Assembly (NCBI GenBank): GCA_964637115.1
Contig: CAZWVL010000001.1
Span: 64,001-128,000, forward strand
Direction of reading: 5' to 3'
Length of the DNA stretch: 64,000 nucleotides
Source: an uncultured Methanosarcinales archaeon
GTDB lineage: Archaea > Nanobdellota > Nanobdellia > Woesearchaeales > ARS49
Made by a program: the position numbers and the translations under genes. Below are positions 11,391 through 27,913 of the stretch, piece by piece. The stretch's first letter is position 1, and every line of letters begins with the position of its first letter. The notes beneath the pieces are model-generated. The model saw nothing but the letters and a program-made list of their open reading frames with translations, was not told where the DNA came from and did no database searches.

Positions 11391-11549
11391 ATGGACCACA
11401 GAATAATCGGTTATGTCGCTTTAGGACTATTGGTAATCTACTTGGCACTCCGCTTTATGGAGCAGTACGCATTCAAAAAAATAGTCCGCGCAGAAGTTGA
11501 GCACGTGCTCAACAGCGACGAGCACAAAGTCAAGGGTCGGTATGGATGA
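11391..11549 (+). CDS. 52-aa single-TM microprotein between dnaK and dnaJ (not in the ORF track)
   Basis: [52 protein letters not shown]; ATG directly follows the dnaK TAA and its TGA overlaps the dnaJ ATG (ATGA). Confidence 0.75.
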
Positions 11550-12610
11550 GCAAGGACTATTACAAAATTCTTGGTGTAGAAAAAGGGGCGTCAATTGAAG
11601 AAATTAAGTCTGCTTACAAAAAATTAGCCAAGAAGTATCATCCTGACATCAATAAAGAAGCAAGTGCTGGAGATAAGTTCAAGGAAATAAATGAAGCAGC
11701 AGCAGTTCTAGGAGATCCTGACAAAAGGGCACAATACGACCAGTTCGGCACGGCAGGATTTAATAGCCAACAGTTCTCAGGCTTTGATTTCAGAGATTTT
11801 GCTGGCAATATGAACTTTGAAGACATATTTGAAAATTTATTCTCAGGATTTGGATTCAGAGGCGGCAGAAGAGGAAAGCCAGGCAGAGACTTAGTAGCAG
11901 AAGTTGATGTTAAACTTGAAGAAGTAGCCAAAGGCACAACTCGCGAGATAGAAATGCAGCGAATGATACAATGTGAGAAGTGCGACGGCAAAGGCGGCAG
12001 CGATTTTGTTCAATGCAGCACCTGCCAAGGGCAGGGAATGGTAAGACACGCCAGAAGAACACCATTCGGCGTGTTCGCAACAACATCTGCATGCAATAAA
12101 TGCAAAGGAACAGGAGAAATACCTGAAAAAGTCTGCAAAGAATGCGACGGAGAAGGAAGAATCGTAAGCAATGAACCTGTAAAAGTCAAGATTCCAGCAG
12201 GAATACACGACGGAATGCGTTTAAGAGTAGGAGGAGCAGGAGAAGCAGGCGCAGAGGGAGCGCAAGCAGGAGACTTGTACGTTATGGTGCACGTTCTTGA
12301 AGACAAAAGATTTGTCAGAGAAGAAAACGATTTAATTGCAGAACAACCAATAAGCTTTACCACTGCCTGTACGGGCGGCGAAATAATAGTAGAAACACTT
12401 GAAGGCAAGAAAAAAATAGAAATAAAGCCAGGAACACAAAACAATTCAGAAAAAAGATTAGAAGGGGATGGGCTGCCAGACTTAAGAGGCGGACACGGAG
12501 ACTTCGTCATCAAACTATCAGTAGAAGTTCCAAAAAAGATAAGCAAAAAACAGAAAGAATTACTGGAAGAGTTTGAAAAAGAAGGCAAGAAGAAATGGGG
12601 ATTGTTCTAA
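11546..12610 (+). CDS. dnaJ: Chaperone DnaJ
   Basis: J-domain KDYYKILGV...YHPD, G/F region, four CxxCxGxG zinc repeats. Confidence 0.98.
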
Positions 12611-13414
12611 ATGAAAGTTGAGAGCATTTTCGATAAAGGATCAGGCAAAATAAATGAAGACGCACTAGTGCTGAATGCTCCTGTCTTTGGCGTTTTTGAT
12701 GGCGCCACAAGCCTTGTTTCCTACGACGAAGATGGAAAAACCGGTGCGTATCTAGCGGCACATATCGCGTGTGAAGTATTTACGAATACTAAAAAACCAC
12801 TTCTAGACTTGGCTCACGATGCAAACAAAAAACTACTGGGGGAAATGGAGAGCAAAAACATCGACGTATCCAAAAAAGAAAATCTCTGGGGCACCACCGC
12901 ATCCGTCATCAGACTTGGCAAGAATCAGTTTGAGTATTTGCTGATTGGCGACAGCGCGATACTTATCATCTATACAGACAACTCGTACAAACTTGCCGTA
13001 GACTATAATGACCATGATATGGAACTGCTAACAAAGTGGAAAAAATTTGCAGATATGAAGACAAAAAACATTCTGCACGTTCTTGATTCTGAATGCATTG
13101 AATTGAGAAAAATAAGCAACGTTTCATATGGTGTTATGAATGGCGAGAAAGAAGCCGTTAAATTTCTTCACACTGGTACAGAAAGCCTCCATAATGTCAA
13201 ACACGTACTCCTTTTCACCGACGGGCTACTTATTCCAAAAGAAAATCCGCAGAATGCTCCTCAATTTGATGCTTTGGTGAAGCTATATTTGGAAGGTGGA
13301 CTCGCTAAAGTTAAAAATCAAGTCCGTGAATTGGAGAACAATGACCCGAACTGCTGGAAATACCCACGTTTCAAGCAGCATGACGATATAGCTGCTATTG
13401 CAATTTCGCTGTAA
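12611..13414 (+). CDS. PP2C-family (PPM) phosphatase domain protein
   Basis: NEDA, GVFDGAT, GTT, IGDS, LLFTDG, HDDIAAI metal-binding motifs. Confidence 0.8.
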   Translation: MKVESIFDKGSGKINEDALVLNAPVFGVFDGATSLVSYDEDGKTGAYLAAHIACEVFTNTKKPLLDLAHDANKKLLGEMESKNIDVSKKENLWGTTASVIRLGKNQFEYLLIGDSAILIIYTDNSYKLAVDYNDHDMELLTKWKKFADMKTKNILHVLDSECIELRKISNVSYGVMNGEKEAVKFLHTGTESLHNVKHVLLFTDGLLIPKENPQNAPQFDALVKLYLEGGLAKVKNQVRELENNDPNCWKYPRFKQHDDIAAIAISL

Positions 13415-13604: not shown

Positions 13605-14177
13605 TTAAGCACTCGCTAATTGCTCACGCAGTTTCTTGTACGCTCGACGTTCGATGGTCTTCACCGTGCCTTCTGGGAGTTTCAGCATTTTGCCAATGGT
13701 ACGCAAAGTCCGCGGCTCCTTTCCATACAAGCCGTGATGGAACGTGATGACAAACCGTTCATGCAATGGCAACACCTGCACTGATTTGTACAGTTGCGTG
13801 TTAAATGTGCGCTCTTCCTTTTTCACTATCTCATCCAGAGGTGTACTGTTGTATGCAGGATCCTGAGAGTCTGGATCAAATGGACGGAAATGCTGTGCGC
13901 GCCGCCTTTCCATTTTCGCAATATCCATAATTTTGTTGCTAATACACGTGCAGGCATATGTTGAAAAACTTGCTTTTTCCGGATCATGGCGCCTCGCCAC
14001 CTTCCATAACTTAATGGCAGCTTCCTGCGCCGCGTCCTCACGCAGATATGGTTTGCACCGTTTTTTCGCCATAGCATGCGTAAGATTAAGATTTTTAAGA
14101 ACTAATTCTTCATAAACAGCTTCATTGCCTTCCTTCACCTGAGCTGCCGCATCATATTTACCCGCGTCCCCACTCAT
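13605..14177 (-). CDS. Small sigma70-family protein (regions 2 and 4 only)
   Basis: Region 2: EDAAQEAAIKLWKVARRHDPEKASFSTYACTCISNKIMD; region 4: LPLHERFVITFHHGL...RTLRTIGKMLKLPEGTVKTIERRAYKKLR. Confidence 0.85.
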   Translation of the reverse strand: MSGDAGKYDAAAQVKEGNEAVYEELVLKNLNLTHAMAKKRCKPYLREDAAQEAAIKLWKVARRHDPEKASFSTYACTCISNKIMDIAKMERRRAQHFRPFDPDSQDPAYNSTPLDEIVKKEERTFNTQLYKSVQVLPLHERFVITFHHGLYGKEPRTLRTIGKMLKLPEGTVKTIERRAYKKLREQLASA

Positions 14178-14288: not shown

Positions 14289-14939
14289 ATGGTCAACGTA
14301 TACTTGCACGGTCCAAAATGGTTTTTCGGGGTGGATGCCAGTTTGGTTGCATTTGCAGCCCTGATAGCCATTTGCGTTGCATTTGCCTCATTAAGACTAT
14401 ATAGAATGACAAAGGAGCGCAAGTACGCATTCTTCACGGCAAGCTTTGTTCTATTAACATTAGGTTTTCTTTCACGGGCGGTTGCTGACATTCTTCTAGA
14501 AGAAATTTTCATGGGCGTGCCAGCAAACATGGCAGGCCTGGTGTTCTTTTATGGCTACGTTTTGCACATTTTACTTGCACTGACTGCATACTTGTTGCTG
14601 ATAATAATTACTTATAAAATAACCGACAAGAGAATAATTGCACTGTTGTTTTTAGTGCTTGTGCCGAGCATGCTTTTGAGCGGCAGCTACTATCTCAGCT
14701 TTTACGGACTAAGCACAATATTCCTTGCATTCATCGCAGCAGCATATTACCAAAACTACAAGAAAGTATGCTCTGCGGCAAGCTGTCTAGTCTTCATATC
14801 TTTTGTTCTGCTTGCGCTTGCACAAGTACAATTCCTGCTCGAAGCAATAAAAGTCACTTTTTATGTTTCAGGGCATATAACCCAGGCAGTTGGATTCCTG
14901 CTAATCCTGGCTGCGCTGATTAAAACATTACTCAAATGA
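14289..14939 (+). CDS. Polytopic (about 7 TM) membrane protein, possible sensor domain
   Basis: Seven hydrophobic segments, no soluble catalytic domain; ATGA overlap with the downstream wHTH gene. Confidence 0.75.
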   Translation: MVNVYLHGPKWFFGVDASLVAFAALIAICVAFASLRLYRMTKERKYAFFTASFVLLTLGFLSRAVADILLEEIFMGVPANMAGLVFFYGYVLHILLALTAYLLLIIITYKITDKRIIALLFLVLVPSMLLSGSYYLSFYGLSTIFLAFIAAAYYQNYKKVCSAASCLVFISFVLLALAQVQFLLEAIKVTFYVSGHITQAVGFLLILAALIKTLLK

Positions 14940-15202
14940 AACGCACTAAAATAGACATTATCTACGACATGCTTCGGGCAATCGAAGACAAAGGAGGAAA
15001 GATAATTCCCACCCATTTACTCTACAAGTCAAACCTTTCTCACCAGAGAATGAAACTGTATCTGGAAGAATTAAAACAGAAACAAATGATTGCGGAAACG
15101 CACGTTAAGGATAAACTGTTCTATGAAATAACAGATGAAGGAAGAAAGTTCCTGCAAAACTTCAAACAGATGAAGCAGTTCACGGAAGCGTTTGGACTGT
15201 AG
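14936..15202 (+). CDS. Archaeal winged-helix transcriptional regulator (HTH_45/DUF4364-like)
   Basis: MKRTKIDIIYDML...IPTHLLYKSNLS...YLEEL...YEITDEGRKFL is typical of small archaeal wHTH proteins. Confidence 0.85.
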   Translation: MKRTKIDIIYDMLRAIEDKGGKIIPTHLLYKSNLSHQRMKLYLEELKQKQMIAETHVKDKLFYEITDEGRKFLQNFKQMKQFTEAFGL

Positions 15203-15879: not shown

Positions 15880-18800
15880 TTGGAGGTCGGTTTGACGAAA
15901 CTTAACGTTCCATATATACCAAAAAAAGGGGGGCTTGGGGTCCTTGCGCTCTTTGGAATTCTATTTATTACACTGATTTTTGCGTTTTACTTCCGGCCAG
16001 CAGACGAAATTGTTGCAAAACCTACAATTGCTGAACAAACAATAAATGAAGCAGTAACGCAGCTGGCGGACAATGAAGTTGTAATACCAGTGCCAAAAGT
16101 TACAGGCGTTGTTTCACTTGATGACCCGAGACCCAAAATTGATCCACAACTGGTCAAGGAATTAAAAGAACTCAAACGACAGAAAAAACACAAAAGAGTC
16201 ACGGTTCTAGTTGAATTAAAAGATGAACGAGCGCTTGAGGCAATCAGGCAAGCAGGCGGAATAGTACAACAAAATTTTGATATTGGAAATATTGCAGTTG
16301 TAGAAGTGCAATCTGACAATGTAGAAAAAATTTCAGAAGCAACAGGAGTTGAACAAGTAGCATCTGAAAAAGAATACGTTGCATTGTTAGCAGACAGAAT
16401 CCCTGCGTTTTCTATCGATACTGCGGCCTGGGAGAATAATATAACTGGCAAAGGAGTCAAGATTGCGATATTAGATACGGGAGTTGGGCCACACAACAAG
16501 ATTACAGTTGCTGAAGGTGCATCTTTTGTTGACGGAGAAGATACAACAGACCAAAACGGACACGGCACGCACGTGGCAGGCATTGCTTATGGTGTTGCGA
16601 AAGATTCAGCAATTTACAATGCAAAAGTCTTGAACAAAGCAGGAGCAGGAACAACATCGCAAATAATTGCCGGAATTAATTGGGCAGTTGAAAACAATGT
16701 CGACATAATTTCAATGAGTTTCGGAGGAATGTTCACGGAGCTTGACGGGCCACTAGCGTCGGCTGTTAAGGAAGCAATTAACAATGGAGTTATTTTTGTT
16801 GTAGCATCTGGAAACTGCAAAACAGGCTGCGGCGGATTCTACGGAGTAACAACACCAGGAAATGTAAAAGAAGTCATAACCATAGGAGCGGTTGATAACA
16901 ATAATGTTGTTGCGAGCTTTAGTTCAGGAGATACGTTTGGCGAGTACATCAAGCCGGATGTTACTGCTCCCGGAATTGACATTACTTCTACATGGCTGAA
17001 CAACGGCGAGAAAACATCAAGCGGAACGTCAATGAGCACGCCGTTTGTTGCAGGTGTAGCTGCTTTACTGCTGGAGAAAGAACCTGGATTAACGAACGAG
17101 CAGGTGAAGCAGAAGCTGGAAGCGACGGCAACGGATGTAGGGGAAACAGGTAAAGATGTGCTGTATGGACGCGGAATAATCAGCGTCGCCAGCATTCTGT
17201 CCTCAAATTACAGCACCCCAGAAACTCCTCCTCAGATGGATGATACTGATCTTCCACCAAGTGACCTATCCAAATACACTTTGCATGAAATAACAGGAGG
17301 CGCATCACCAGAATACATAACGACTGATTGCCCGGAAAGCCTCGCATACTCCACAGAATTGAATCTATCACGTGAAGAATTTTACATGGCATACGAGTAT
17401 TGCATACTTCAGATCGAGAACAAGGTTCCTGAGTTACCTACTCCAGATCACTATCAAAATATCACAGATACGAGTGAGTATATCAGACAAGCTCCAAGAA
17501 TATATTTTGAAAACTGGCAATCGTACATTCCCGCCGGAGATGTTAACGAAACGCTCATACAAGAGTTAAAGCTAAAAGTCCGAGATCTTCAATCCTTTGA
17601 TTTCAAAACACTGGCAAACCCAGAACCTCTGTTTGATACCCAAAACCACATAGAAGTGGATTATGATGATAATTATAACGTGTTCCTGGGGAGTAATGAT
17701 GATGGAGTAGTGTGGGGAGGTTCAACGCTTTCGGGTCGCTTGCAGGAAGGAAGCAGCAGTCCAACTAATGCTCAAGTAATTTGTTACGATTGGTGTTCTG
17801 AATTTGATTCAGCATGGGATCATTGTTTCTCCACGAGCTCGACGGGCGCAAGCAGATCCGCTGATTTTTCAGCCTGCAGAGCAAGAAACTCAATCATCAA
17901 TTCAGTTTGCTCTGCAAACAATTGCGCGATGGGTCAAGCAGAAGGAGAGCACTCAATAGGCACAGGAAGTTCCGGCTCTCGTGAAAAATGCACAGTACGC
18001 TCATTTTATGTTACTGGTTGTTCCTCCGCATACACCTTAAGTGGCACTTTCAGTGCCACACATTACACGATTTCACCACGACAATTCTGGTGTGCGAATA
18101 GCGACACGGCATATGATGATGTGGGAAGATTTGGGAACAATCTTGAATGGATACTAATGCACACAATCTCCTGTGGAACAGGAAATAAGTGTGACGCAAC
18201 CATAGATGCTGACAATTCAGACTTTGGAACATCGGGAACAAGCGTGCCTAGCTCTCTTTGCAGGATAGACAATGGGCAATCCGGCTGTTCTCAGAACAGC
18301 CAATGCCTTGCAGGATCGCATTGTACGAGTAGCCATTGTTGCCTGAACGGACAAGAATGGGACGGTACGGGGTGCAGCATTCCAGGTACATGCACAGCTG
18401 GATTCAACGGCAATAAGCGATGCAGCGGCAATACACCACAATGGCAATATCAAAATTCTGACTGCTCGACAACCTGGCAAAACCAAGCGGCTTGCTCAAC
18501 AGGAACAACCTGCCAAAATGGAGATTGCGTGTCCACATGTAACAGTAATGGTCTCTGTGAATCTGGAGAAACCAAGCCTGGGTGTCCAAGTGATTGTAAC
18601 AAATCCATAGGTGCTATTTGCACTGCAAACAACCAGTGCAGTACGAACTTCTGCGATGGCAACACAGGCACGTGTCAAGCACCAACTACCTGCACTGATG
18701 GAGATCAAGATGGTTACGGAAATCCAGGAAGCGCAACGTGCTCAGCTGGGTCCACCTTGCTAGATTGCGATGACATTGATCCATTCATAAATCCTGGTGC

Positions 18801-21800
18801 AATAGAGCAATGTAACGGAAAAGATGACAATTGTAACGGTCAAACAGATGAAGGAGGAGTATGCACGCCACAACCGACATGCAATGACCAAGACCAAGAC
18901 GGATACGGAAGCCCGGCAACAGGATGCCCACAAACACTCCCAGATTGCGATGATTCAAAGTCAAATATACATCCAAACGCTCCGGAAATATGCGATGGAT
19001 TTGACAATGACTGCGACGGATCAATTGATGAAGCAAATGTTTGTTGCGGAAACCAACAATGCGACACTGGACTTGGAGAAAATCTGCAAAGCTGTGCGCA
19101 GGACTGCTATTCAAGCTACCAAATTACAGGAATACAATCACCAAGCAGTGTGAATCAAGGACAAACTGTGCAAGTAACAGCCAGCATCAAAAATACGGGC
19201 ACCTGGCCAGGAACAACAAATGTGGAAGGAGGAATAATACCCGACGGCTGGTTGCCATTTAGCAGTTCAAAATGCTGCGGCAACAACAACTTTTTCGGCA
19301 CGCAACAAACAACAATACAGCCAGGGCAAACAAACAACATACAGTTTACGTTAACAGCTCCCGGTGTAACAACAAAAGACAGTTGCGGAGGACAATCGGC
19401 GTGGGATACAAGCCACGAAATAACAATTGGACTCTACGATAATTGCGGAAACACTTACCAGCTAAAATCAAATCAAGATATAAAGATACAAGATAAGCCT
19501 TGCTCAAAGCCAAGCGATTGTGCTCTGCCTGCTGAAAAATGCGTCATCCTAAGCACAACCGGAACTTGCCAGGCAAATACTTGCACGAACCTATGCACAA
19601 GCGGGCAATATGCGTGTAGCGGAGAAACCGTTAGGCACTGTGAAGACACAAACAGTGACGGATGCTACGAATGGAAAGACACGACCGTATGCGCACCTGG
19701 ACAAACATGCGTACCAGGGCAGAGCTCATGTACGGCCGTTCAGATATCGACGGAACCATTTATTGAAGAATCAGCAGGTGGACAAGTCTACAAGCAAATT
19801 GGCGACACTGTTATACTAAACCTGAAATTTTTCCAACAAGAGCAAATCTCATTATATTACGATTCAAACCAATTTGAACTGGACGCGACAACCTGCCAGC
19901 AGACATTTACGATAGACAAAGACACGGCCTGCAAGTTTAAAGTAAAAATAGGACTGCAAGGAGCAGAACTTGGAGTGCGAAAGCAAAATACGATCAAACC
20001 TGCAAAGGCTACAGTTGTTACAATAAACAATCATAATGGAATAATAATAACTAATAAGAAAAAGCTAAAGGAAAGATTTGCAGGGCAGGAAATAAGCGTT
20101 CAAAATCTTCTAAATGACGCATATAACTTTGCTGATGACAACAATCTAATCATCTATGACTTGCAGGAACTGCCAGTCATACATCCATGGGCAAACTTCC
20201 CAACATACCAGGAAACAATAGCAAACCCATTCATGGTGGACAACACTTTAGCTGTAGAAATAGGAAAATTCATACGCAAGAAATGCATTCCTCCACAATG
20301 CCAGAGCACGCTAATACTTGGCGACGATTATGTCGTTCCACACTATAGGCGTTATACACAATTCTTGAATTCATATTTCTTCTCTCCAGCTATTAATACA
20401 CAGCTGCTCTACTCAGAGATACCGTATGTGGAAAGAACCACAAAAGAATTCTCACAACTGGATGAAGTGCTAAGCGATGACAATATTGCAAAGCAAGTGG
20501 TTATCATTAAGCCTGATTCTCTGTCAACAGAAATGCGAACTGCTGTTAACCGGCTAAAGGCAACTCTGCAAGCAAACTTTAGCTCAAGCATAACAGAAAA
20601 AGATTCAAGCAATGTGACTTGCAATGATCCTCAGCTCTTCAACAATCTAAATGGCGTGACGATAATAATACTCGGAACAGAACAAAACAACAGAGCTTAC
20701 AACTGCATGCCATTCGTCGCAGGATTAGAGAATAGGGACTCCGCATTCCTGGAAGTCAACCCGTGGGACGGAGGCGAGTATTCCATTGTCATCAACACAG
20801 AAAATCCCAAAATTATTGAAACCTTCAGCGATGTACTTCGCACAGGAGTATACAAAAAGATAATTGGCAGGCACTGGTATTTCATAGAGATGGCAGTGAC
20901 AGCGGCAAGTTTTGTCGCCATGGCCTGCGGTCCAATCCCCTGTGATTACGTTGTGGACTCTATTGATGCGGGAATACAATGCGGTGTTAAAGAAGATGCC
21001 CTAATGTGCGGTGTCAGCACTGGAGTCGCAATCTTGCCAATTATACCAAGTGGGCCGGTAAAATTGGTAATAAAGGCATTTATCCACTATGTTGGACCTG
21101 CTGGAGAAGCGTTTATACTGAAATATGGGCCTGGAGCTGTTACGTTCTTTGCAGGTATTGGAGGAAAATTCGATGATTTCAAAGCGTATCTTAAGAAAGC
21201 AGTAGATTACTTTGATGTTGAATGGAATGTAATTATCAAAAATTTCAACACACCGGCAGATGAAGAAGCTCTTGCGTTTGGCATAAAGAACATTGAGGCA
21301 GAGGGCAAAACTTTACAAGCATTTGAATCTGCCTTAAGCAAGCAGCAAAAAGCTCGCATCCTTCACTCAATTGGAAAATACTCCTCAGAATTCTTTGCGC
21401 AAAAAGGTTGGAAACAATTTGACAAGCTTGATAAGAGACTGTATAGAGTTGATTTACATACGCCTGATTTCATCAAAAATGCAGGCGGATGGACAAGAAC
21501 GGGCGGAGATGATTACGTCGGTTATGTAAAACAATTGAAAAATGGAAGATTCGTAGCGACAAGCAGATACGTTTCTGGAGCATTCCATGGAGCGAAAAGC
21601 GCTGGAAGCGTTGCTGACGGAGGAACGGCTTACGTATACATAATAGATCCGCGCACGCGTAATTATATCGATGCCCTTGAAACCGTGCCAAATCCTGGAT
21701 CCAATATGTTTATCGAAAGTGAAGTAACTGCTGTCGACAACATAGACTGGAATGATGTTGTAGGAACAGCGGTCTGGAAAGATGGTGATGATCTTCCACG

Positions 21801-21870
21801 GTCTGTATCACCAAATCCATCTTACAAAGGTAGCATGAGCCTGAATAACCTTGGCTGGGAGGTTGACTAA
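15880..21870 (+). CDS. Giant membrane-anchored multidomain toxin carrier: TM anchor, I9 propeptide, S8 subtilisin, Cys-rich/MopE-like repeats, CARDB/Ig, C25-like subdomain, pre-toxin hairpin, C-terminal R-S-E ADP-ribosyltransferase
   Basis: S8 triad IAILDTG (D, 16474), HGTHVAG (H, 16561), GTSMSTP (S, 17029); two DCDD...NPxAxExCxGxDDxCxG repeats; toxin tip LYR (21439-47)...FVATS (21556)...YVYII...ESEV (21715-23)...NPSY. Likely start is TTG 15892, 4 nt after GGAGGT (15882-15887). Confidence 0.85.
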   Translation: MEVGLTKLNVPYIPKKGGLGVLALFGILFITLIFAFYFRPADEIVAKPTIAEQTINEAVTQLADNEVVIPVPKVTGVVSLDDPRPKIDPQLVKELKELKRQKKHKRVTVLVELKDERALEAIRQAGGIVQQNFDIGNIAVVEVQSDNVEKISEATGVEQVASEKEYVALLADRIPAFSIDTAAWENNITGKGVKIAILDTGVGPHNKITVAEGASFVDGEDTTDQNGHGTHVAGIAYGVAKDSAIYNAKVLNKAGAGTTSQIIAGINWAVENNVDIISMSFGGMFTELDGPLASAVKEAINNGVIFVVASGNCKTGCGGFYGVTTPGNVKEVITIGAVDNNNVVASFSSGDTFGEYIKPDVTAPGIDITSTWLNNGEKTSSGTSMSTPFVAGVAALLLEKEPGLTNEQVKQKLEATATDVGETGKDVLYGRGIISVASILSSNYSTPETPPQMDDTDLPPSDLSKYTLHEITGGASPEYITTDCPESLAYSTELNLSREEFYMAYEYCILQIENKVPELPTPDHYQNITDTSEYIRQAPRIYFENWQSYIPAGDVNETLIQELKLKVRDLQSFDFKTLANPEPLFDTQNHIEVDYDDNYNVFLGSNDDGVVWGGSTLSGRLQEGSSSPTNAQVICYDWCSEFDSAWDHCFSTSSTGASRSADFSACRARNSIINSVCSANNCAMGQAEGEHSIGTGSSGSREKCTVRSFYVTGCSSAYTLSGTFSATHYTISPRQFWCANSDTAYDDVGRFGNNLEWILMHTISCGTGNKCDATIDADNSDFGTSGTSVPSSLCRIDNGQSGCSQNSQCLAGSHCTSSHCCLNGQEWDGTGCSIPGTCTAGFNGNKRCSGNTPQWQYQNSDCSTTWQNQAACSTGTTCQNGDCVSTCNSNGLCESGETKPGCPSDCNKSIGAICTANNQCSTNFCDGNTGTCQAPTTCTDGDQDGYGNPGSATCSAGSTLLDCDDIDPFINPGAIEQCNGKDDNCNGQTDEGGVCTPQPTCNDQDQDGYGSPATGCPQTLPDCDDSKSNIHPNAPEICDGFDNDCDGSIDEANVCCGNQQCDTGLGENLQSCAQDCYSSYQITGIQSPSSVNQGQTVQVTASIKNTGTWPGTTNVEGGIIPDGWLPFSSSKCCGNNNFFGTQQTTIQPGQTNNIQFTLTAPGVTTKDSCGGQSAWDTSHEITIGLYDNCGNTYQLKSNQDIKIQDKPCSKPSDCALPAEKCVILSTTGTCQANTCTNLCTSGQYACSGETVRHCEDTNSDGCYEWKDTTVCAPGQTCVPGQSSCTAVQISTEPFIEESAGGQVYKQIGDTVILNLKFFQQEQISLYYDSNQFELDATTCQQTFTIDKDTACKFKVKIGLQGAELGVRKQNTIKPAKATVVTINNHNGIIITNKKKLKERFAGQEISVQNLLNDAYNFADDNNLIIYDLQELPVIHPWANFPTYQETIANPFMVDNTLAVEIGKFIRKKCIPPQCQSTLILGDDYVVPHYRRYTQFLNSYFFSPAINTQLLYSEIPYVERTTKEFSQLDEVLSDDNIAKQVVIIKPDSLSTEMRTAVNRLKATLQANFSSSITEKDSSNVTCNDPQLFNNLNGVTIIILGTEQNNRAYNCMPFVAGLENRDSAFLEVNPWDGGEYSIVINTENPKIIETFSDVLRTGVYKKIIGRHWYFIEMAVTAASFVAMACGPIPCDYVVDSIDAGIQCGVKEDALMCGVSTGVAILPIIPSGPVKLVIKAFIHYVGPAGEAFILKYGPGAVTFFAGIGGKFDDFKAYLKKAVDYFDVEWNVIIKNFNTPADEEALAFGIKNIEAEGKTLQAFESALSKQQKARILHSIGKYSSEFFAQKGWKQFDKLDKRLYRVDLHTPDFIKNAGGWTRTGGDDYVGYVKQLKNGRFVATSRYVSGAFHGAKSAGSVADGGTAYVYIIDPRTRNYIDALETVPNPGSNMFIESEVTAVDNIDWNDVVGTAVWKDGDDLPRSVSPNPSYKGSMSLNNLGWEVD

Positions 21871-22661
21871 TGACTTACATCTCAATAACGAAGTGGACAA
21901 ATAAAGCGCTGGACTTCTTTAAAGAAATCGCTTCACGTGCAAACAAGCACTTCGGTACTCAGTTTGCTGTCCAGCGCGAAATAGAAATCCCTGATAGAGA
22001 CAGATATTCTGTTTTTGAGAAGAATAATTCAAATGTTTCAATTAATGTTGACGTGCTTCCTGCTTACCCGCCGAAGTTTCCTCTATCGTCGGTGAACGTC
22101 AGAATTTCTGTAACAGGAATGGATGAGCGATTCGCGCTTCAAACAATAACCGAATTTTGCAGGAAAATTGCAATTGATTACGGAGACTCCATCGTGTGGG
22201 TGGGAGCCGAAATAAGTATTGAGCCACCTACTTATTACACAATTAATTACACTCGCGACCTTAATGAAAGAGCTTTCTTTGACAGACTTCAAGTTTATCA
22301 TAAAGAACTCATCCATGGCGAGCCGTTTGTAATTTACGCCTACACGTTGCCTCACATCAAAGATGCGATTGAAGTCATCTGGGATAATGCTGAGTTAGAA
22401 GAACTTGGCGCACACAAAAAGATTTCTGTTGGATTCAAGCTGTTTGTAGTCCCCAAAAAACCAGAAATGGGCTGCATTGGATTGGTTGGAAAAGCACTGA
22501 ATCCACCCCATGGACTTATGATTAAAGCTGATACCTATGATGAATTGCAAGCGAAAATTCGCGAGAATCTTGAAAAGCGCGGACTGCGGCTTATTACAGA
22601 CCTCGTAGCGCTTATTGCGGCCAGCAAAAGCGTCAACGAATACGGTGTAGAATGGAAATGA
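21870..22661 (+). CDS. Cytoplasmic orphan protein, candidate immunity protein
   Basis: TAATG overlap with the toxin stop, no signal peptide or TM, no recognisable family; overlaps the next gene by 10 nt. Confidence 0.65.
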   Translation: MTYISITKWTNKALDFFKEIASRANKHFGTQFAVQREIEIPDRDRYSVFEKNNSNVSINVDVLPAYPPKFPLSSVNVRISVTGMDERFALQTITEFCRKIAIDYGDSIVWVGAEISIEPPTYYTINYTRDLNERAFFDRLQVYHKELIHGEPFVIYAYTLPHIKDAIEVIWDNAELEELGAHKKISVGFKLFVVPKKPEMGCIGLVGKALNPPHGLMIKADTYDELQAKIRENLEKRGLRLITDLVALIAASKSVNEYGVEWK

Positions 22662-25600
22662 AGAATACGCTTTGGATACTTGCACTGATTTTAATAATTG
22701 CAATTCCAGTAGCTGCCATTCCCTCAGTCTACGAGTCAACATCTGTCTCGCGCATAGTGGGAGATACTCCGCTTGAAATGCAAAATCAGCTGAAGAGAGA
22801 CGACCTTGACCTTGAGTCAGCAGGACTGTTTGACGACTCACTCTCGCCCCTAATACAATCAAACATGTTCAACAGCTTCCCACAAGCATTCCAACAATCG
22901 CCAGATGATTCCTGGCTTCAAAACAGCGGAAAAACCCTGCTAGTCTATAATTCTCAATGGTATACAAACACTCATACGAGCAACAATTACATCACCACCG
23001 GCTCACTGCCAAAATTATCAAGCCCAGAATCACTCGTTATTGCCAATACGCACTATGCGGGAATCGCACTGCCTAAAATAGATGCTTTTGGAGATAGGCT
23101 TTCATCAAAAACAACACTAATAGCGCCTCTCTCACGCAGCAGCACTCGTTTCCTTGAATCTGTTATCTGCAACTTAGGCAGAAACGACGGACTGCCAATA
23201 GGAGAAACATTCAGACTAGCACGAAACAATTATCACTGGAACACTAAAGACGATCAAGATATAATCGGGCTTTCATTACTGTCATACGCTCTTTACGGAA
23301 ACCCGTTCGCAAAAGCAGAAGTTCCTGAATTTGACACATCTGCAAGAGACTATCACTGCGAGAACCGATTAGCAGATTATACTGTAAGTGCATTATCAAG
23401 CAGCCCGATAACCAGCACAACTGATGGATTCCAGCAAACGCACACATATACCATCCAGGACTATGATATCGAACAAACAGGCACATTTGAAATAATAAAT
23501 TCAGCAGACTTCGAACTCGGATACGAGCCAGGAGAATTAGTGCTGCCATACAAATCATTGATATTCCAATTCCCGCATAAAACAATTATCACAGGATACG
23601 ACATAGAGTTTTCCAATCCAGTCGATATTACTGCAAACATACCAGAATGGAATGGCGAAAATTACACCAATAGAATTTGCTCAGTTTCCTCTCAAAATGA
23701 AAGCGCGACAATAAACCAAGTCAACTCTCCAGACTCACAAATCGTAATCGCTAAATTAAACCCAATTGAAATCACAGATTGTGAACAAGGCTCGTTCACT
23801 CTCTACCGGACCGCGTCAATAACACTTAGTTATTATCCATACTCGCCGATCAGAATTACGAGCGTAGAAGCGCCACAAGAATCACTCCCATCAGAATTTA
23901 AAACAATAAAAGTCAACATTGAAAATACGCAGAACACGCCAACAACCGGCACACTTATACTGAAAAACGAGCAAGGAATAGTTAGCGTTAATACGATCAG
24001 CACAACACAATCACAACACAATCTGGAAATTTATACTCCTGCAGAAGAAGGAACATACACTTATACTGTGGAGTTCGTACAAAACGGCGACGTGAAGACC
24101 AGTACAACATTCACAACTGAAGTAAGCATATTGGACGCAAGCCTCGAAATTCCAGATGTCGTCCAGGATGAGGCAGACATAGACGTGCACATTACAAATA
24201 AGAAAACAACAAGCATGCAGAGCGACATAACAGCATATCTAAGCAAAGACGGACAGACAATCAGTCAACAAACGCAAAGCATTCAATTACAACCAGGAGA
24301 AAATACTGCAACATTTACCTTTACAGACTTACAAAAAGACGATCAACAGTACGATGTTCTCGTAGCTATACCTTATGAGAACAAGATAAAGACGCTAACC
24401 GGTAAAATTGTCACAAATCATGATCCATCAATTCTCAATACTAATGTAATCTACCAAGAAGGCGACACGGTCTTGATTACACCAAACGTGGCAGATGCAG
24501 ATGGAGACACAATAATCGCCAGTATAACTGACCAGCCATTTGAATTAGACGGTAGCCATACACTTGATTATGAAAGCAGCGGCGAATACACGTACACTGT
24601 AGAAGCAACAGACGGTACAACAACCGTGCAACAAACATTCGGCGTCCTTGTTCAAAACACTAACAGACCACCAGTCATCAGCACGCCTGAAAATGTCACA
24701 GGAAAAGAAGACCAACAAATCACCATACAAGCATCTGCAACAGATCCTGACAATGAAAACTCTGTTGATAATGATGATAACCAGCTCACAATAACTTACG
24801 ATTATCCATTTGATCAAAATGGAGCATATACGCCAACATATGAAGAATCAGGCGAAATATATGTCACGGTTACAGCAAGCGATGGAGAACTTTCTGATGC
24901 CGTGCTAGTCAAAGTTGTTATTGCCAACGTCAACAGGCCACCACAACTAGACGATCTAGCAAATATCACCATCAATGAAGGCGAATTTGTAGACTTATGG
25001 AAAGGAAGAGACCCAGATAATGAGAATAATGTGACAAACGACGATAACACTCTCTGGATGTACTTTGCAGGCGGACCAGATGGAGGGCCGATAAACCATT
25101 ACGGCAAGTGGCAGACTGATAATGAAGACAGCGGAGTGTATCCGATGACTGTGCAAGTGGAAGATGGAGAACTGAAAGCAGGCAAGCTGATTACGCTGAC
25201 TGTGCAGAACGTGAACAGGCCGCCAATAATAACAGCTCCAGATGTAGTGTATGCTTCAGGTTCTGTTGATTTATCACAATATATTACTGATCCTGATAAT
25301 ACAAACAGCGTGGCGAACGATGACAATACTCTGAGCGTTACTTATGGCTCTCCATTTGATGGAAATGGCAGATGGACGCCAGCACAGCCAGACAGCGCAG
25401 CACAAGTAACAATAACAGTTTCAGACGGAGAATTCAGCGTAACAAAGACGATAATGGTAATGGTAGATGTTGTAGGAGTACAGCCGGTACAAAGCCCGCC
25501 AGTTCCAACAGAAGAGCCAGAAGCGCCGGAACCAACTCAGACTCAAGAAAGTACAACCGATACAAGCGATCCAAGCCCGCCAATACAATCAACGCCGCCT

Positions 25601-26665
25601 GCAAGTACACCTGTATCAGATCCAGCACCTGCGCCGGGCTCAACACCAGTACAGCCAACAAATACTCCGGCAGGACAAACAATATCGTCAAGCACACAAC
25701 AAATTCCTCAGCAGGAAAGTCAGCCACAGCCAACTCCTCAACCAACAAGCCCGCCACCAGCACAACAAACCACTCCAACACCGCAGCAACAGACACAACA
25801 AACCCAACAGCAGCAGACAGCACAGCAACAGCAGACAACACCCACTCCAGGAACACTTGAAATCAAAGTCATTGTGGACAGCAAGGAAGTTGATGACGGC
25901 GATTCAGTAAAAGTAAAACCAGACGATGAATTCAAAGTCAAAGTGGAACTGGAGAATAACGCGGCAGAAGCCAAAGATGTAGATGTTGATGTGAAACTAA
26001 GCGACTTTGACCAGGAAGAAAGTGACAGCATAACTTTGAAAGCAGGCGAGAGCGAGCAATTCAAGTATACATTCGACATACCGAAGCTAACAGATGATGA
26101 CGAGTATCTTCTTGAGATAAGAGTGAATGAAAAAAAATGGGAAATAACGCTGAAAATAGACAAGCCATCACACGAAATTAATGTGAAAGCAAATGTGGAG
26201 CCGGAAATCGTGCTGTGCGAAGAAACTTCAGCCAAACTTAAAGTCAGAATTGAGAATACTGGCAGGGATGACGAAGAAGGAACAATAAAAGTAGAAAGCA
26301 GCACGCTGAAGTTGTTGGACGAATGGCCGTTTGACCTGCCGGAAGGGGAATCACAATTGTTTGAGAAAATTATTAATGCGCTAGTTCCCGGAGAACACGG
26401 TATTTCAGTAAAAGCGCTTTACGGAAGCAAAAACGCAAAAGCAGACGCGAAATTAACGGTAGAATCCTGCAAGAAAGAAGAAACACAAAACACGCAATTG
26501 GCGCCGGAGGAAAGAATGGCATCGGCACTTGCAAACAAGAAATCTGCGACACCAGTTAATGCAGACGCAATGCCGTTTGAAGACACAATCAGCATAATAT
26601 TTGTAGTGCTGAGTAGCATATTTGCAATTACACTACTAATAGCAATACCTAGAATATTCAGGTAG
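22652..26665 (+). CDS. Large secreted, C-terminally anchored surface protein: C25-like subdomain, Propeptide_C25-like domain, Ig/CARDB, cadherin-like repeats, P/Q/T linker, CARDB-like, TM
   Basis: Signal peptide MKNTLWILALILIIAIPVAA; LPIGETFRLARNNY...YALYGNPF; PGELVLPYKSLIFQFP...LNPIEI...TLYRTASITLSY; three NxNRPP boundaries with DPDNxN...NDDNxL Ca-binding-like loops; C-terminal hydrophobic helix. Confidence 0.8.
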   Translation: MEMKNTLWILALILIIAIPVAAIPSVYESTSVSRIVGDTPLEMQNQLKRDDLDLESAGLFDDSLSPLIQSNMFNSFPQAFQQSPDDSWLQNSGKTLLVYNSQWYTNTHTSNNYITTGSLPKLSSPESLVIANTHYAGIALPKIDAFGDRLSSKTTLIAPLSRSSTRFLESVICNLGRNDGLPIGETFRLARNNYHWNTKDDQDIIGLSLLSYALYGNPFAKAEVPEFDTSARDYHCENRLADYTVSALSSSPITSTTDGFQQTHTYTIQDYDIEQTGTFEIINSADFELGYEPGELVLPYKSLIFQFPHKTIITGYDIEFSNPVDITANIPEWNGENYTNRICSVSSQNESATINQVNSPDSQIVIAKLNPIEITDCEQGSFTLYRTASITLSYYPYSPIRITSVEAPQESLPSEFKTIKVNIENTQNTPTTGTLILKNEQGIVSVNTISTTQSQHNLEIYTPAEEGTYTYTVEFVQNGDVKTSTTFTTEVSILDASLEIPDVVQDEADIDVHITNKKTTSMQSDITAYLSKDGQTISQQTQSIQLQPGENTATFTFTDLQKDDQQYDVLVAIPYENKIKTLTGKIVTNHDPSILNTNVIYQEGDTVLITPNVADADGDTIIASITDQPFELDGSHTLDYESSGEYTYTVEATDGTTTVQQTFGVLVQNTNRPPVISTPENVTGKEDQQITIQASATDPDNENSVDNDDNQLTITYDYPFDQNGAYTPTYEESGEIYVTVTASDGELSDAVLVKVVIANVNRPPQLDDLANITINEGEFVDLWKGRDPDNENNVTNDDNTLWMYFAGGPDGGPINHYGKWQTDNEDSGVYPMTVQVEDGELKAGKLITLTVQNVNRPPIITAPDVVYASGSVDLSQYITDPDNTNSVANDDNTLSVTYGSPFDGNGRWTPAQPDSAAQVTITVSDGEFSVTKTIMVMVDVVGVQPVQSPPVPTEEPEAPEPTQTQESTTDTSDPSPPIQSTPPASTPVSDPAPAPGSTPVQPTNTPAGQTISSSTQQIPQQESQPQPTPQPTSPPPAQQTTPTPQQQTQQTQQQQTAQQQQTTPTPGTLEIKVIVDSKEVDDGDSVKVKPDDEFKVKVELENNAAEAKDVDVDVKLSDFDQEESDSITLKAGESEQFKYTFDIPKLTDDDEYLLEIRVNEKKWEITLKIDKPSHEINVKANVEPEIVLCEETSAKLKVRIENTGRDDEEGTIKVESSTLKLLDEWPFDLPEGESQLFEKIINALVPGEHGISVKALYGSKNAKADAKLTVESCKKEETQNTQLAPEERMASALANKKSATPVNADAMPFEDTISIIFVVLSSIFAITLLIAIPRIFR
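25490..25850 (+). repeat. Pro/Gln/Thr/Ser low-complexity linker (QQQT-type repeats)
   Basis: QPQPTPQPTSPPPAQQTTPTPQQQTQQTQQQQTAQQQQTTPTP; coding low-complexity sequence. Confidence 0.75.
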
Positions 26666-26708: not shown

Positions 26709-27350
26709 ATGAAAAAAGAGATATTGATGATACTAGTGATATTAGGCCTGCCAACATTCTTCATAATGAGCTTTGGGCCAGCATATTCCGGGGCATTAGT
26801 AAATGAAGTATCACAGATGAGAGTAGACAGGATAAACATGGCATTACAGTTTCCACAATACCTAATACCGATGCTAAAGCAGCCGACATATGATGCACGA
26901 AATTATTTGATACAAGGCGCAAACGAACATTATTACGGGCCAACAGGCCTCATAGACGGCTCAGGATTCTTCTTCCAGGAAATGCAATTAATTCCAGCAC
27001 TACTGCAATTAATGTGTTTAGTGCAGATTGACCAGCCAAATCAGGGATTGTATATCAGCGGACAAGGATTGCAAATACATTTGATTAACAATTTATGGTA
27101 CAACAAGCAGCTGCCCTATCTTGGAAAAGTGTTATGCGATGGAACTGCACGAGACGCAGCACACGCAACACTGGCAAAAGTAATAGAAAACGATTTCAAC
27201 CTGGTGGAATACACGGTAGAACAGAGCAACTGCCCTGAAGCAGGACGGGCAAGCCTGCAGAAAGCGCAGGAAAACTTTGCAATCGGAGAATACGAGATAA
27301 TGCTTGATTATCTGAAAGCTGCAGTAATGCAGGCAAGTGCGTGCGCATGA
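26709..27350 (+). CDS. Hypothetical secreted/membrane-anchored protein (213 aa)
   Basis: N-terminal hydrophobic segment followed by YSGALV; own TATA-like tttttata upstream. Confidence 0.7.
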   Translation: MKKEILMILVILGLPTFFIMSFGPAYSGALVNEVSQMRVDRINMALQFPQYLIPMLKQPTYDARNYLIQGANEHYYGPTGLIDGSGFFFQEMQLIPALLQLMCLVQIDQPNQGLYISGQGLQIHLINNLWYNKQLPYLGKVLCDGTARDAAHATLAKVIENDFNLVEYTVEQSNCPEAGRASLQKAQENFAIGEYEIMLDYLKAAVMQASACA

Positions 27351-27913
27351 AATTCTCGAAGTTTGAAATAAAAGAAATAGTGAAAGCCTGGATAGGAGTA
27401 TCTTTAGTGTTTGCCATAGCGATGGCCGGCTTGAAGGGGCTGGTTGTTGCGCTGCCAATTGCTTTAGTAACAGGCGGAATAGGATTTCTGCTTCACGAAT
27501 TAGCACACAAATATGTCGCACAAAAATACAAGTGCTGGGCAGAATTCAGAGCGAATAATTCAGCATTGCTCATTGGATTATTGCTGAGTTTCTTTGGATT
27601 TATTTTACTGGCGCCAGGCGGAGTGTACATCCACGGAGCAAACAGAAACCAGCACGGAAAGATAGCGCTTGCAGGGCCGTTGACGAATGTTATACTTGCG
27701 CTGCTCTTTTTTGGACTAACAACAATAGTTTCAACACCGTTGATGACTGCAACTGCAAAATACGGATTTCAGATAAATGCATTCTTAGGAGTCTTTAATT
27801 TAATACCGGTTTTGCCATTTGACGGTAGAGCTGTTTGGCAGTGGAATCGCGCGGTGTATCTGCTAACAGTTGCGGCGGCGGGGATTCTGACATTTTTTTC
27901 ATTAGCAGCTTAG
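27347..27913 (+). CDS. Site-2 protease / peptidase M50 family intramembrane metalloprotease
   Basis: LLHELAHK, IALAGP, FNLIPVLPFDG motifs; start moved to ATG 27347 (ATGA overlap). Confidence 0.9.
   Translation: MKFSKFEIKEIVKAWIGVSLVFAIAMAGLKGLVVALPIALVTGGIGFLLHELAHKYVAQKYKCWAEFRANNSALLIGLLLSFFGFILLAPGGVYIHGANRNQHGKIALAGPLTNVILALLFFGLTTIVSTPLMTATAKYGFQINAFLGVFNLIPVLPFDGRAVWQWNRAVYLLTVAAAGILTFFSLAA

Follow-up and report, generated by a model that had tools for sequence, protein, structure and literature searches.

A probable polymorphic toxin/immunity locus with exchangeable carrier tips in Woesearchaeota-type DPANN archaea

Introduction

In CdiA/CdiI systems a conserved carrier leads, past a VENN junction motif, into an exchangeable tip; the immunity gene is located downstream and orphan modules occur as well. 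A three-gene locus of comparable layout is described here from an uncultured archaeon of the order Woesearchaeales. It occupies positions 15880–26665 of the window, i.e. the whole 64,000 nt stretch of DNA that was analysed (assembly GCA_964637115.1, contig CAZWVL010000001.1, contig positions 64,001–128,000 of the forward strand), and consists of three overlapping plus-strand genes, A, B and C, defined by open reading frame (ORF) calls and translation. The locus is probably a polymorphic toxin/immunity system of Woesearchaeota-type DPANN archaea, with a presumed toxicity of the tip, a presumed binding of the tip by the product of gene B, and a conjectured target and mode of delivery.

Sec-exported ‘stalked’ polymorphic toxins of bacteria have been catalogued by Zhang et al. 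(Zhang, de Souza, Anantharaman, Iyer & Aravind 2012; Biol Direct 7:18; PMC3482391), whose Table 1 includes a subtilisin processing protease. In the same catalogue, tip exchange and orphan cassettes are the general logic of polymorphic toxins, and such systems are rare in archaea, with Methanosarcina and haloarchaea cited. The initial annotation of the window, a model's reading made without database searches, had not recognised the architecture of this locus from any described system. For the subtilisin-like (S8) part the novelty was thereby overstated, since S8-bearing, Sec-exported polymorphic toxins were already listed in that table for bacteria. Full-text literature searches, in which the archaeal polymorphic-toxin literature was covered in part, returned no paper tying DPANN archaea or Woesearchaeota to ADP-ribosyltransferase (ART) toxins; pore-forming toxins in Woesearchaeota are mentioned in a passage of PMC12352652 that cites Vigneron et al. 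2022.

Organization of the locus

The following features were delimited, in window coordinates (aa, amino acids; E, expectation value):

15880–21870, plus strand: gene A, putative giant exported carrier-toxin, 1996 aa from TTG 15880 (ORF and translation)
15928–15993, plus strand: N-terminal hydrophobic anchor of A (aa 17–38), called from hydropathy alone (Kyte-Doolittle maximum 2.61)
16447–17175, plus strand: Peptidase S8 (subtilase) domain of A (aa 190–432; Pfam PF00082, E 1e-52)
17557–19746, plus strand: stalk of A, rich in cysteine and bearing MopE-type repeats (PF11617, E 3.5e-18; a third repeat is also present)
19747–20919, plus strand: conserved, family-defining body domain of A (aa 1290–1680), 33–76 % identical to 14 relatives
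20920–21351, plus strand: pre-toxin module of A (aa 1681–1824; broadly about 1660–1840), from a 15-locus alignment
21352–21867, plus strand: exchangeable toxin tip of A (aa 1825–1996), predicted cholera toxin/heat-labile enterotoxin (LT)-type ART (AlphaFold2, Foldseek and profile against PDB)
21870–22661, plus strand: gene B, candidate immunity (antidote) protein of 263 aa, cytoplasmic, with a TAATG junction that couples its translation to that of A
22652–26665, plus strand: gene C, 1337-aa surface partner (hydropathy, Pfam and relatives)

The gene A/B junction is TAATG at 21868–21872 and genes B and C overlap by 10 nt (22652–22661). The initial annotation had given the same three genes and both junctions, and these are borne out by the ORFs. 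Its description of the three products was likewise sound: the N-anchored subtilisin/cysteine-rich protein of 1996 aa ending in an ART has the anchor, the S8 domain, 78 cysteines and an ART fold; the signal-less orphan of 263 aa has no hydrophobic segment and no family; and the C-anchored surface protein of 1337 aa has a signal-like N-terminus and a C-terminal transmembrane segment. Gene A probably starts at TTG 15892, giving 1992 aa, because a Shine–Dalgarno-like GGAGGT ends 5 nt before that codon and the database gene call P0004 (1992 aa) starts there. An alternative in-frame ATG for gene C at 22658 would produce an ATGA overlap with gene B. The genome that holds the window measures 1.27 Mb in 27 contigs and is 98 % complete; close homologues are labelled in public records as Candidatus Woesearchaeota archaeon or Nanoarchaeia archaeon.

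Exchange of tips among related carriers

With aa 1290–1996 of A as query, six-frame searching of 60 related genomes found the carrier in 7, and a search of 5.8 billion proteins returned only 10 carrier proteins, all of them Woesearchaeota-type S8/MopE giants. Fifteen related loci were compared, with the genome of the window designated G000. Against a carrier of the same genus (G006), A is ~80 % identical up to aa 1640, 50–65 % identical in the hydrophobic module and 12–25 % identical in the tip. At least nine tip classes are present on the 15 related carriers, among them:

cholera-toxin-like ART: window, P0009, P0012 and L027
Scabin-like ART: G006 (34.7 bits against a cut-off of 27), G015, L025 and L026
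two more divergent ART types: G013; G011/G003
PI3/4-kinase-like, sub-threshold: G023 (unpublished genome) and P0008
HExxH-bearing: G008 (HEIAH) and a G329 mini-carrier (HEYAH)
without assignment: P0006, P0007 and others

The G015 and L025 tips were assigned by homology to the G006 tip (BLAST and motif), and that of L026 by a weak precomputed PF22596 match. The PI3/4-kinase-like tips of G023 and P0008 scored 23 and 12.4 bits, below threshold (PDB E 0.22), so the call depends mainly on a GxxDRHxxNILI...IDYG-like motif; the best-scoring of these tips and its helical B both come from the unpublished genome. Pfam gave no match for the tips of P0006 and P0007, the G008 and G013 tails or the G329 and G378 orphans, and phmmer gave none for the G008 tail against PDB sequences.

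In a maximum-likelihood tree of the A body domain (15 loci, 9 tip classes, G023 as one row), tip classes require 11 changes, compared with a mean of 11.1 when they are shuffled. Well-supported sisters carry unlike tips: G000 (cholera-toxin-like) and G006 (Scabin-like) are joined with a support of 99, and G015 (Scabin-like) and L027 (cholera-toxin-like) differ in tip inside a clade with a support of 100. Judged by this tree, tip exchange is independent of carrier phylogeny. Dropping G023 would leave the conclusion unchanged, because it rests on public genomes.

Cassette replacement and arrays

The carrier of L027 (GCA_900175145.1, FWWM01008022.1) is 76 % identical to that of G015 until ~180 residues from its end, and then continues into a cholera-toxin-like tip of the P0009 type. 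Four genes lie between this carrier and gene C (L027:5593–8822). The first encodes a 357-aa B protein that is 71 % identical to the B of the P0009 locus and in which part of the C-terminus is repeated internally. The second encodes 240 aa, the initial 27 of which are left over from a B of the G015 type, the third (178 aa) has no assignment, and the fourth is an intact G015-type B (77 % identical), followed by C. The arrangement looks like a replacement of tip and antidote in which the old antidote was kept.

Shorter and repeated forms are found at other loci. In G329 (L030, G329:C9:24000–43999) a full carrier and B are followed by mini-carrier ORFs of 575 and 536 aa and then by C; each mini-carrier starts with a signal-like segment of its own, is homologous to A over ~aa 1510–1840, and has a different tip and a separate downstream small gene. 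Two orphan carrier fragments precede C in G378 (L031, G378:C1:912000–931999), as do tandem sets of paralogous small genes that are 70–90 % identical, with three copies of 196 aa and five to six copies of 232–249 aa. At L023:11627–13413 (JGI 3300010938), a 271-aa gene combines the first 69 codons of C with a duplicate of the C-terminal 202 aa of A (98 % identical); behind this tip duplicate the 155-aa B gene is present a second time, with 100 % identity. The tandem duplication could be a real recombination or an assembly artefact.

These loci bear on the question of whom the tip is directed against. Genes A and C could encode an attachment/injection device of an episymbiont, with a tip that manipulates or kills the host and a B that acts as a chaperone before export or as self-protection. 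Small-genome DPANN archaea are thought to depend on hosts, and the genome of 1.27 Mb is of this kind; A and C are large adhesin-like surface proteins; and the PI3/4-kinase-like tips are more like effectors than bacteriocins. However, L027 keeps an intact B for a tip that it no longer encodes, and G378 has tandem arrays of B-like paralogues; protection against the toxins of neighbours, in a conflict among kin, explains both of these better. A purely host-directed effector is therefore improbable, although the two readings are not exclusive: the orphan antidote and the antidote-like arrays point to conflict among related cells, and a role against hosts may exist beside it.

Gene B and its co-variation with the tip

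In every complete locus A is followed by a small signal-less gene of 155–357 aa. BLAST relates these B genes to one another solely beside related tips (the G006/G015, G011/G003 and P0009/P0012 loci), and the B genes beside non-ART tips show no similarity to other B genes. The B protein of the window (P0002) has only three distant relatives among 1.84 billion representative proteins, one of which, P0018, sits in an A-B-C triad with a Scabin-like tip (L025). Its group joins the G006/G015 group, i.e. the B genes of Scabin-like tips (hhalign 97 %, E 5.5e-11). Its matches to the G011/G003 and P0009/P0012 B genes are collinear but not significant (hhalign E 0.03–0.04), so that a single ART-immunity superfamily may at most be suggested. 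ESM-Atlas features of B gave no usable match, and structure prediction of the complex of tip and B scored 0.75, 0.00 and 0.00, a result that gives no verdict and was used neither for nor against.

As far as these comparisons reach, the class of gene B co-varies with the class of tip in the relatives. Gene B is a candidate cognate antidote, the product of which would bind the tip and protect against it. In G008 the gene B position (L017:6253–6513, minus strand) holds only an ORF of ~90 aa with four CxxC pairs, resembling a zinc ribbon.

The initial annotation had read the locus as a polymorphic toxin system and had proposed a search with the carrier for swapped tips and swapped downstream genes. 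Both were found. The conserved body, the swapped tips, the co-varying B, the L027 replacement and the arrays all agree with that reading.

The toxin tip as an ADP-ribosyltransferase

The AlphaFold2 model of the tip, built on an 11-row alignment of family tips, has a predicted local distance difference test score (pLDDT) of 79.2 and a predicted template modelling (TM) score of 0.79; a single-sequence run over aa 1640–1996 gave a pLDDT of 34. With Foldseek the model has 69 matches in PDB at E <= 0.001, and the top hits are all ART toxins. Cholera toxin A1 (E 4.9e-7, TM 0.55) and LT-A (E ~5e-7, TM ~0.55) lead, and pertussis S1, Scabin, pierisin, MTX and the Rhs toxin TreX (E 1.2e-4, TM 0.53–0.68) are among the further matches. 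The best matches of a four-sequence profile of the tip against PDB sequences are LT-A (E 0.005), CARDS toxin (0.009) and cholera toxin (0.024). In hidden Markov model alignments R1856 falls on R7 of LT-A, and E1946-S-E1948 on E110-Q-E112. The tip is, according to the model and these alignments, a mono-ADP-ribosyltransferase fold of the cholera toxin (R-S-E) group with the predicted catalytic arginine and E-x-E. When longer or fused relatives of the tip were sought by word matching, only the gene A protein itself was recovered.

The carrier

The S8 domain of A scores 179.7 bits against a cut-off of 21.8 and covers profile positions 1–288 of 288; D199, H228 and S384 are all present, and the protease appears intact by sequence. 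Sixty-four of the 78 cysteines lie between aa 560 and 1300. Neither the body domain nor the pre-toxin module matched a Pfam family. The latter, placed by the 15-locus alignment in front of all tip classes, contains segments of weak hydrophobicity, a linker and the conserved motifs D..D....C...C and PSG..K. An IGKYxxEFF-type junction motif is found at aa 1831–1839, just inside the toxin tip. From the anchor and the cysteine-rich, extracellular-type stalk, A is presumably an exported multidomain carrier.

The suggestion of the initial annotation that delivery proceeds with none of the parts of type V, type VI or type VII secretion systems (T5SS, T6SS, T7SS), RHS or HINT agrees with the domain searches: Pfam and NCBIfam gave no RHS, HINT, TPS, PAAR, LXG, T5SS or T7SS domain in A, and no TPS domain, FHA repeats, RHS repeats, PAAR or LXG/WXG domain in A, B or C.

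One carrier, P0012 (L020/L028; Candidatus Woesearchaeota archaeon RIFOXYB1_FULL_29_12; 1587–1598 aa), has MopE repeats and a cholera-toxin-like tip and is without an S8 domain. The protease is thus not obligatory for the carrier family. An extra 130-aa multi-pass membrane protein is located between B and C of the P0012 locus, and the C of this locus has a Dockerin_1 match.

An S8 protease next to an ART raises the idea of an anti-virus (abortive-infection) module, in which protease and ART effector would be restrained by B. ARTs occur in some defence systems, and A has a weak NCBIfam match to the anti-phage S8 peptidase IteS. However, that match reaches 23.7 bits against a cut-off of 900, A carries a membrane anchor and most of its cysteines in an extracellular-type stalk, the surface partner C is obligate, and P0012 dispenses with the S8 domain altogether. 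Such a module is hardly credible here.

Gene C, a surface partner

In the product of gene C a signal-like N-terminus is accompanied by a conserved N-terminal domain (aa 25–460), Ig/cadherin-like repeats, a stalk rich in Pro, Thr and Gln, a CARDB-like domain and, at ~aa 1313–1333, a C-terminal membrane anchor. Over most of the protein, identity to its relatives is 35–63 %. A sample of 401 genomes from across the phylum was searched with profiles for the A body and for the C N-terminal domain. Each matched 23 genomes; 22 have both and 377 neither. The single A-only genome (G187) has its match at a contig end, and the single C-only genome (G277) is unpublished and fragmented. All positive genomes belong to the order of the window, in at least 16 families, and the A body and C genes lie on the same contigs, 1.5–3 kb apart. 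The order A-B-C is found in 15 of the 15 loci examined. The initial annotation had named a lack of synteny in relatives as an argument against its own reading; synteny held across the order. By these counts gene C is a near-obligate partner of A. The second half of the A body may dock on C, because the G329 mini-carriers keep exactly that part.

The initial annotation had further described C as a split-C25 partner of the carrier. This was not confirmed: none of 9 A bodies and none of 11 C N-terminal domains matched Peptidase_C25 (PF01364) at E <= 1, and no gingipain was among the profile matches of the A and C halves against PDB sequences. One lead came from a protein language model, in which the clusters nearest to C aa 25–460 by ESM-Atlas features carry Peptidase_C25 (score 0.90, 168/256 features shared), and it is taken as a lead only. 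If a C25-like fold is present, the alignments suggest that it lacks the catalytic His/Cys dyad, which is not evidently conserved at the expected places.

Genes A and C together could be a delivery apparatus specific to Woesearchaeales that operates without a secretion system. The second half of the A body would dock on the N-terminal domain of C, the S8 protease would release A from its own anchor, and passage of the tip through the membrane of the target cell would fall to the hydrophobic pre-toxin module; docking might complete a catalytically dead, gingipain-like fold. This more specific proposal is rather unlikely. If true, the apparatus would be a new kind of archaeal contact-dependent toxin delivery, with a new ART immunity family.

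Counter-evidence and topology

Several observations weigh against a polymorphic toxin system. The toxicity of the tip and its use of NAD+ are predictions. Pfam PF01375 (Enterotoxin_a) matches the tip at 19.4 bits (E 8.9e-4), under the 21-bit cut-off, and the tip is therefore filed only as an ART fold of the cholera toxin group and not as a PF01375 member. The middle S-T-S motif is degenerate and ambiguous in position (A-T-S or V-S-G): HMMER puts YVSG (S1899) on YVST of LT, and in the family alignment STT of the Scabin-like tips corresponds to A1893-T-S1895. For gene B (P0002) no hydrophobic segment, no Pfam or NCBIfam family and no recognisable fold were found. The cholera-toxin-like tip of the window is paired with a B of a group otherwise found beside Scabin-like tips, so the relation between B family and tip class is not strictly one-to-one. 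The genome of the window has a single copy of the locus, and no paralogues or orphan cassettes were found in it. The composition of tip and gene B is not foreign, and recent import from a distant donor is accordingly not supported. Additionally, the genomes positive for A and C are kin and thus not independent, so that the co-occurrence counts are descriptive and carry no statistical test.

Topology is the main uncertainty of the polymorphic toxin reading. The tip could remain inside the producer if the hydrophobic segments that precede it are genuine transmembrane helices. In that case A would be a transmembrane receptor, with true helices at aa 1668–1735, the variable enzyme as its cytoplasmic signalling output and B as a substrate or regulator. 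Two to three hydrophobic stretches do precede the tip, a K/R-rich stretch follows them in several relatives, and B is cytoplasmic. However, the hydropathy at aa 1668–1735, a region that extends back into the end of the body domain, is borderline (1.6–1.65), and in the alignment the number of hydrophobic stretches differs between relatives, which would flip the topology if they were helices. The outputs would be toxin-type domains (cholera-toxin-like and Scabin-like ARTs, HExxH), exchanged irrespective of carrier phylogeny, and orphan cassettes and short secreted carriers exist as well. A receptor is thus very improbable. Borderline stretches that vary in number are more in keeping with a latent translocation module than with fixed helices in the membrane, though not decisively.

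Genomic neighbourhood

Upstream of the locus, genes for DnaJ and a PP2C-type phosphatase are located at window 11546–13414 (plus strand), and GrpE-DnaK-DnaJ likewise precede the carrier locus in L023. This shared neighbourhood indicates a conserved chromosomal context, with no obvious mobile island. At 13605–14177 (minus strand) a 190-aa ORF of this archaeal genome matches Sigma-70 of bacteria, in region 2 (E 1.4e-11) and in region 4 (E 6.9e-10). The interval 14289–15202 (plus strand), immediately before gene A, encodes a 216-aa membrane protein with a weak MASE3-like match, coupled to an 88-aa HTH_45 winged-helix protein; in L023, L024 and the P0008 contig, too, the carrier is preceded by a comparable pair (~215–228 aa plus HTH_45). 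This pair may be a regulator of the locus. Directly after gene C, at 26709–27913 (plus strand), a 213-aa protein without assignment is followed by a 190-aa Peptidase_M50-like protein; pairs of this type also follow C in G006, G013 and L024 and are missing in several other loci.

Proposed mechanism and significance

Under the polymorphic toxin reading, A would be exported but stay tethered to the membrane through its N-terminal anchor, displaying the S8 protease, the disulfide-rich stalk and the body. The hydrophobic pre-toxin module would come next, then the exchangeable C-terminal toxin, and a tip of the cholera toxin/LT type would modify, with NAD+ as its substrate, a target in the cell next to it. 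The B protein, made from the same transcript, would stay in the cytoplasm and bind and block the tip, sparing the producer and its kin. C, a C-terminally anchored surface protein, would dock or present the carrier body, and the S8 domain may release the tip. The target cells could be related archaea, hosts or both.

The locus takes up ~10.8 kb of a 1.27-Mb genome in ultra-small, host-dependent archaea, and its family extends to 16 or more families of the order. Such investment and spread imply that direct cell-to-cell conflict, be it among kin or against hosts, ranks as a major selective force for these organisms. The locus family is additionally a source of undescribed toxin and antidote folds, of testable tip/B pairs and of a possible new delivery route across archaeal envelopes.

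Comparison with known systems

The closest likeness is to bacterial polymorphic toxins, and the locus is a bacterial-style swappable-toxin system, in the probable reading given above, on a different, archaeal chassis. As in the stalked systems of Zhang et al. (2012), an apparently exported multidomain carrier with a protease ends in a recombining C-terminal toxin, the candidate immunity gene is directly downstream, and orphan cassettes occur in relatives. Unlike in those systems, the organism is a Woesearchaeota-type DPANN archaeon, the stalk consists of MopE/cysteine-rich repeats in place of RHS/FilH, the body and the hydrophobic pre-toxin module are without a Pfam family, and the surface partner C is obligate.

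Xenorhabdus bovienii TreX-TriX (PDB 9gco), an Rhs/type VI secretion system (T6SS) pair, likewise has an ART tip on a large carrier and a cognate immunity gene. The archaeal locus differs in having no RHS repeats, PAAR or T6SS parts, in a B without detectable similarity to known proteins, and in a tip that is nearer to cholera toxin/LT-A than to TreX.

With cholera toxin A1 and LT-A (PDB 1s5b, 1xtc, 1lta, 1ltb) the tip shares the predicted ART fold, R1856 in the place of R7, E1946-x-E1948 in the place of E110-x-E112, and a C-proximal NPxY-like motif. In contrast, identity is only ~20–23 %, there is no A2 chain and no B pentamer, and the tip is fused to a carrier of 1800 aa; the degenerate STS and the score under the Enterotoxin_a cut-off set it further apart.

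The likeness to CdiA/CdiI lies in the conserved carrier, the downstream immunity gene, the orphan modules and the IGKYxxEFF-like junction motif, analogous in position to VENN. The TPS domain, CdiB transporter and FHA repeats of that system have no counterpart here; the archaeal envelope has a single membrane, and partner C is present instead. Newly described here for the archaeal locus family are the L027 replacement, the incongruence between body tree and tips, the order-wide co-occurrence of A and C, the mini-carriers and the link between B groups.

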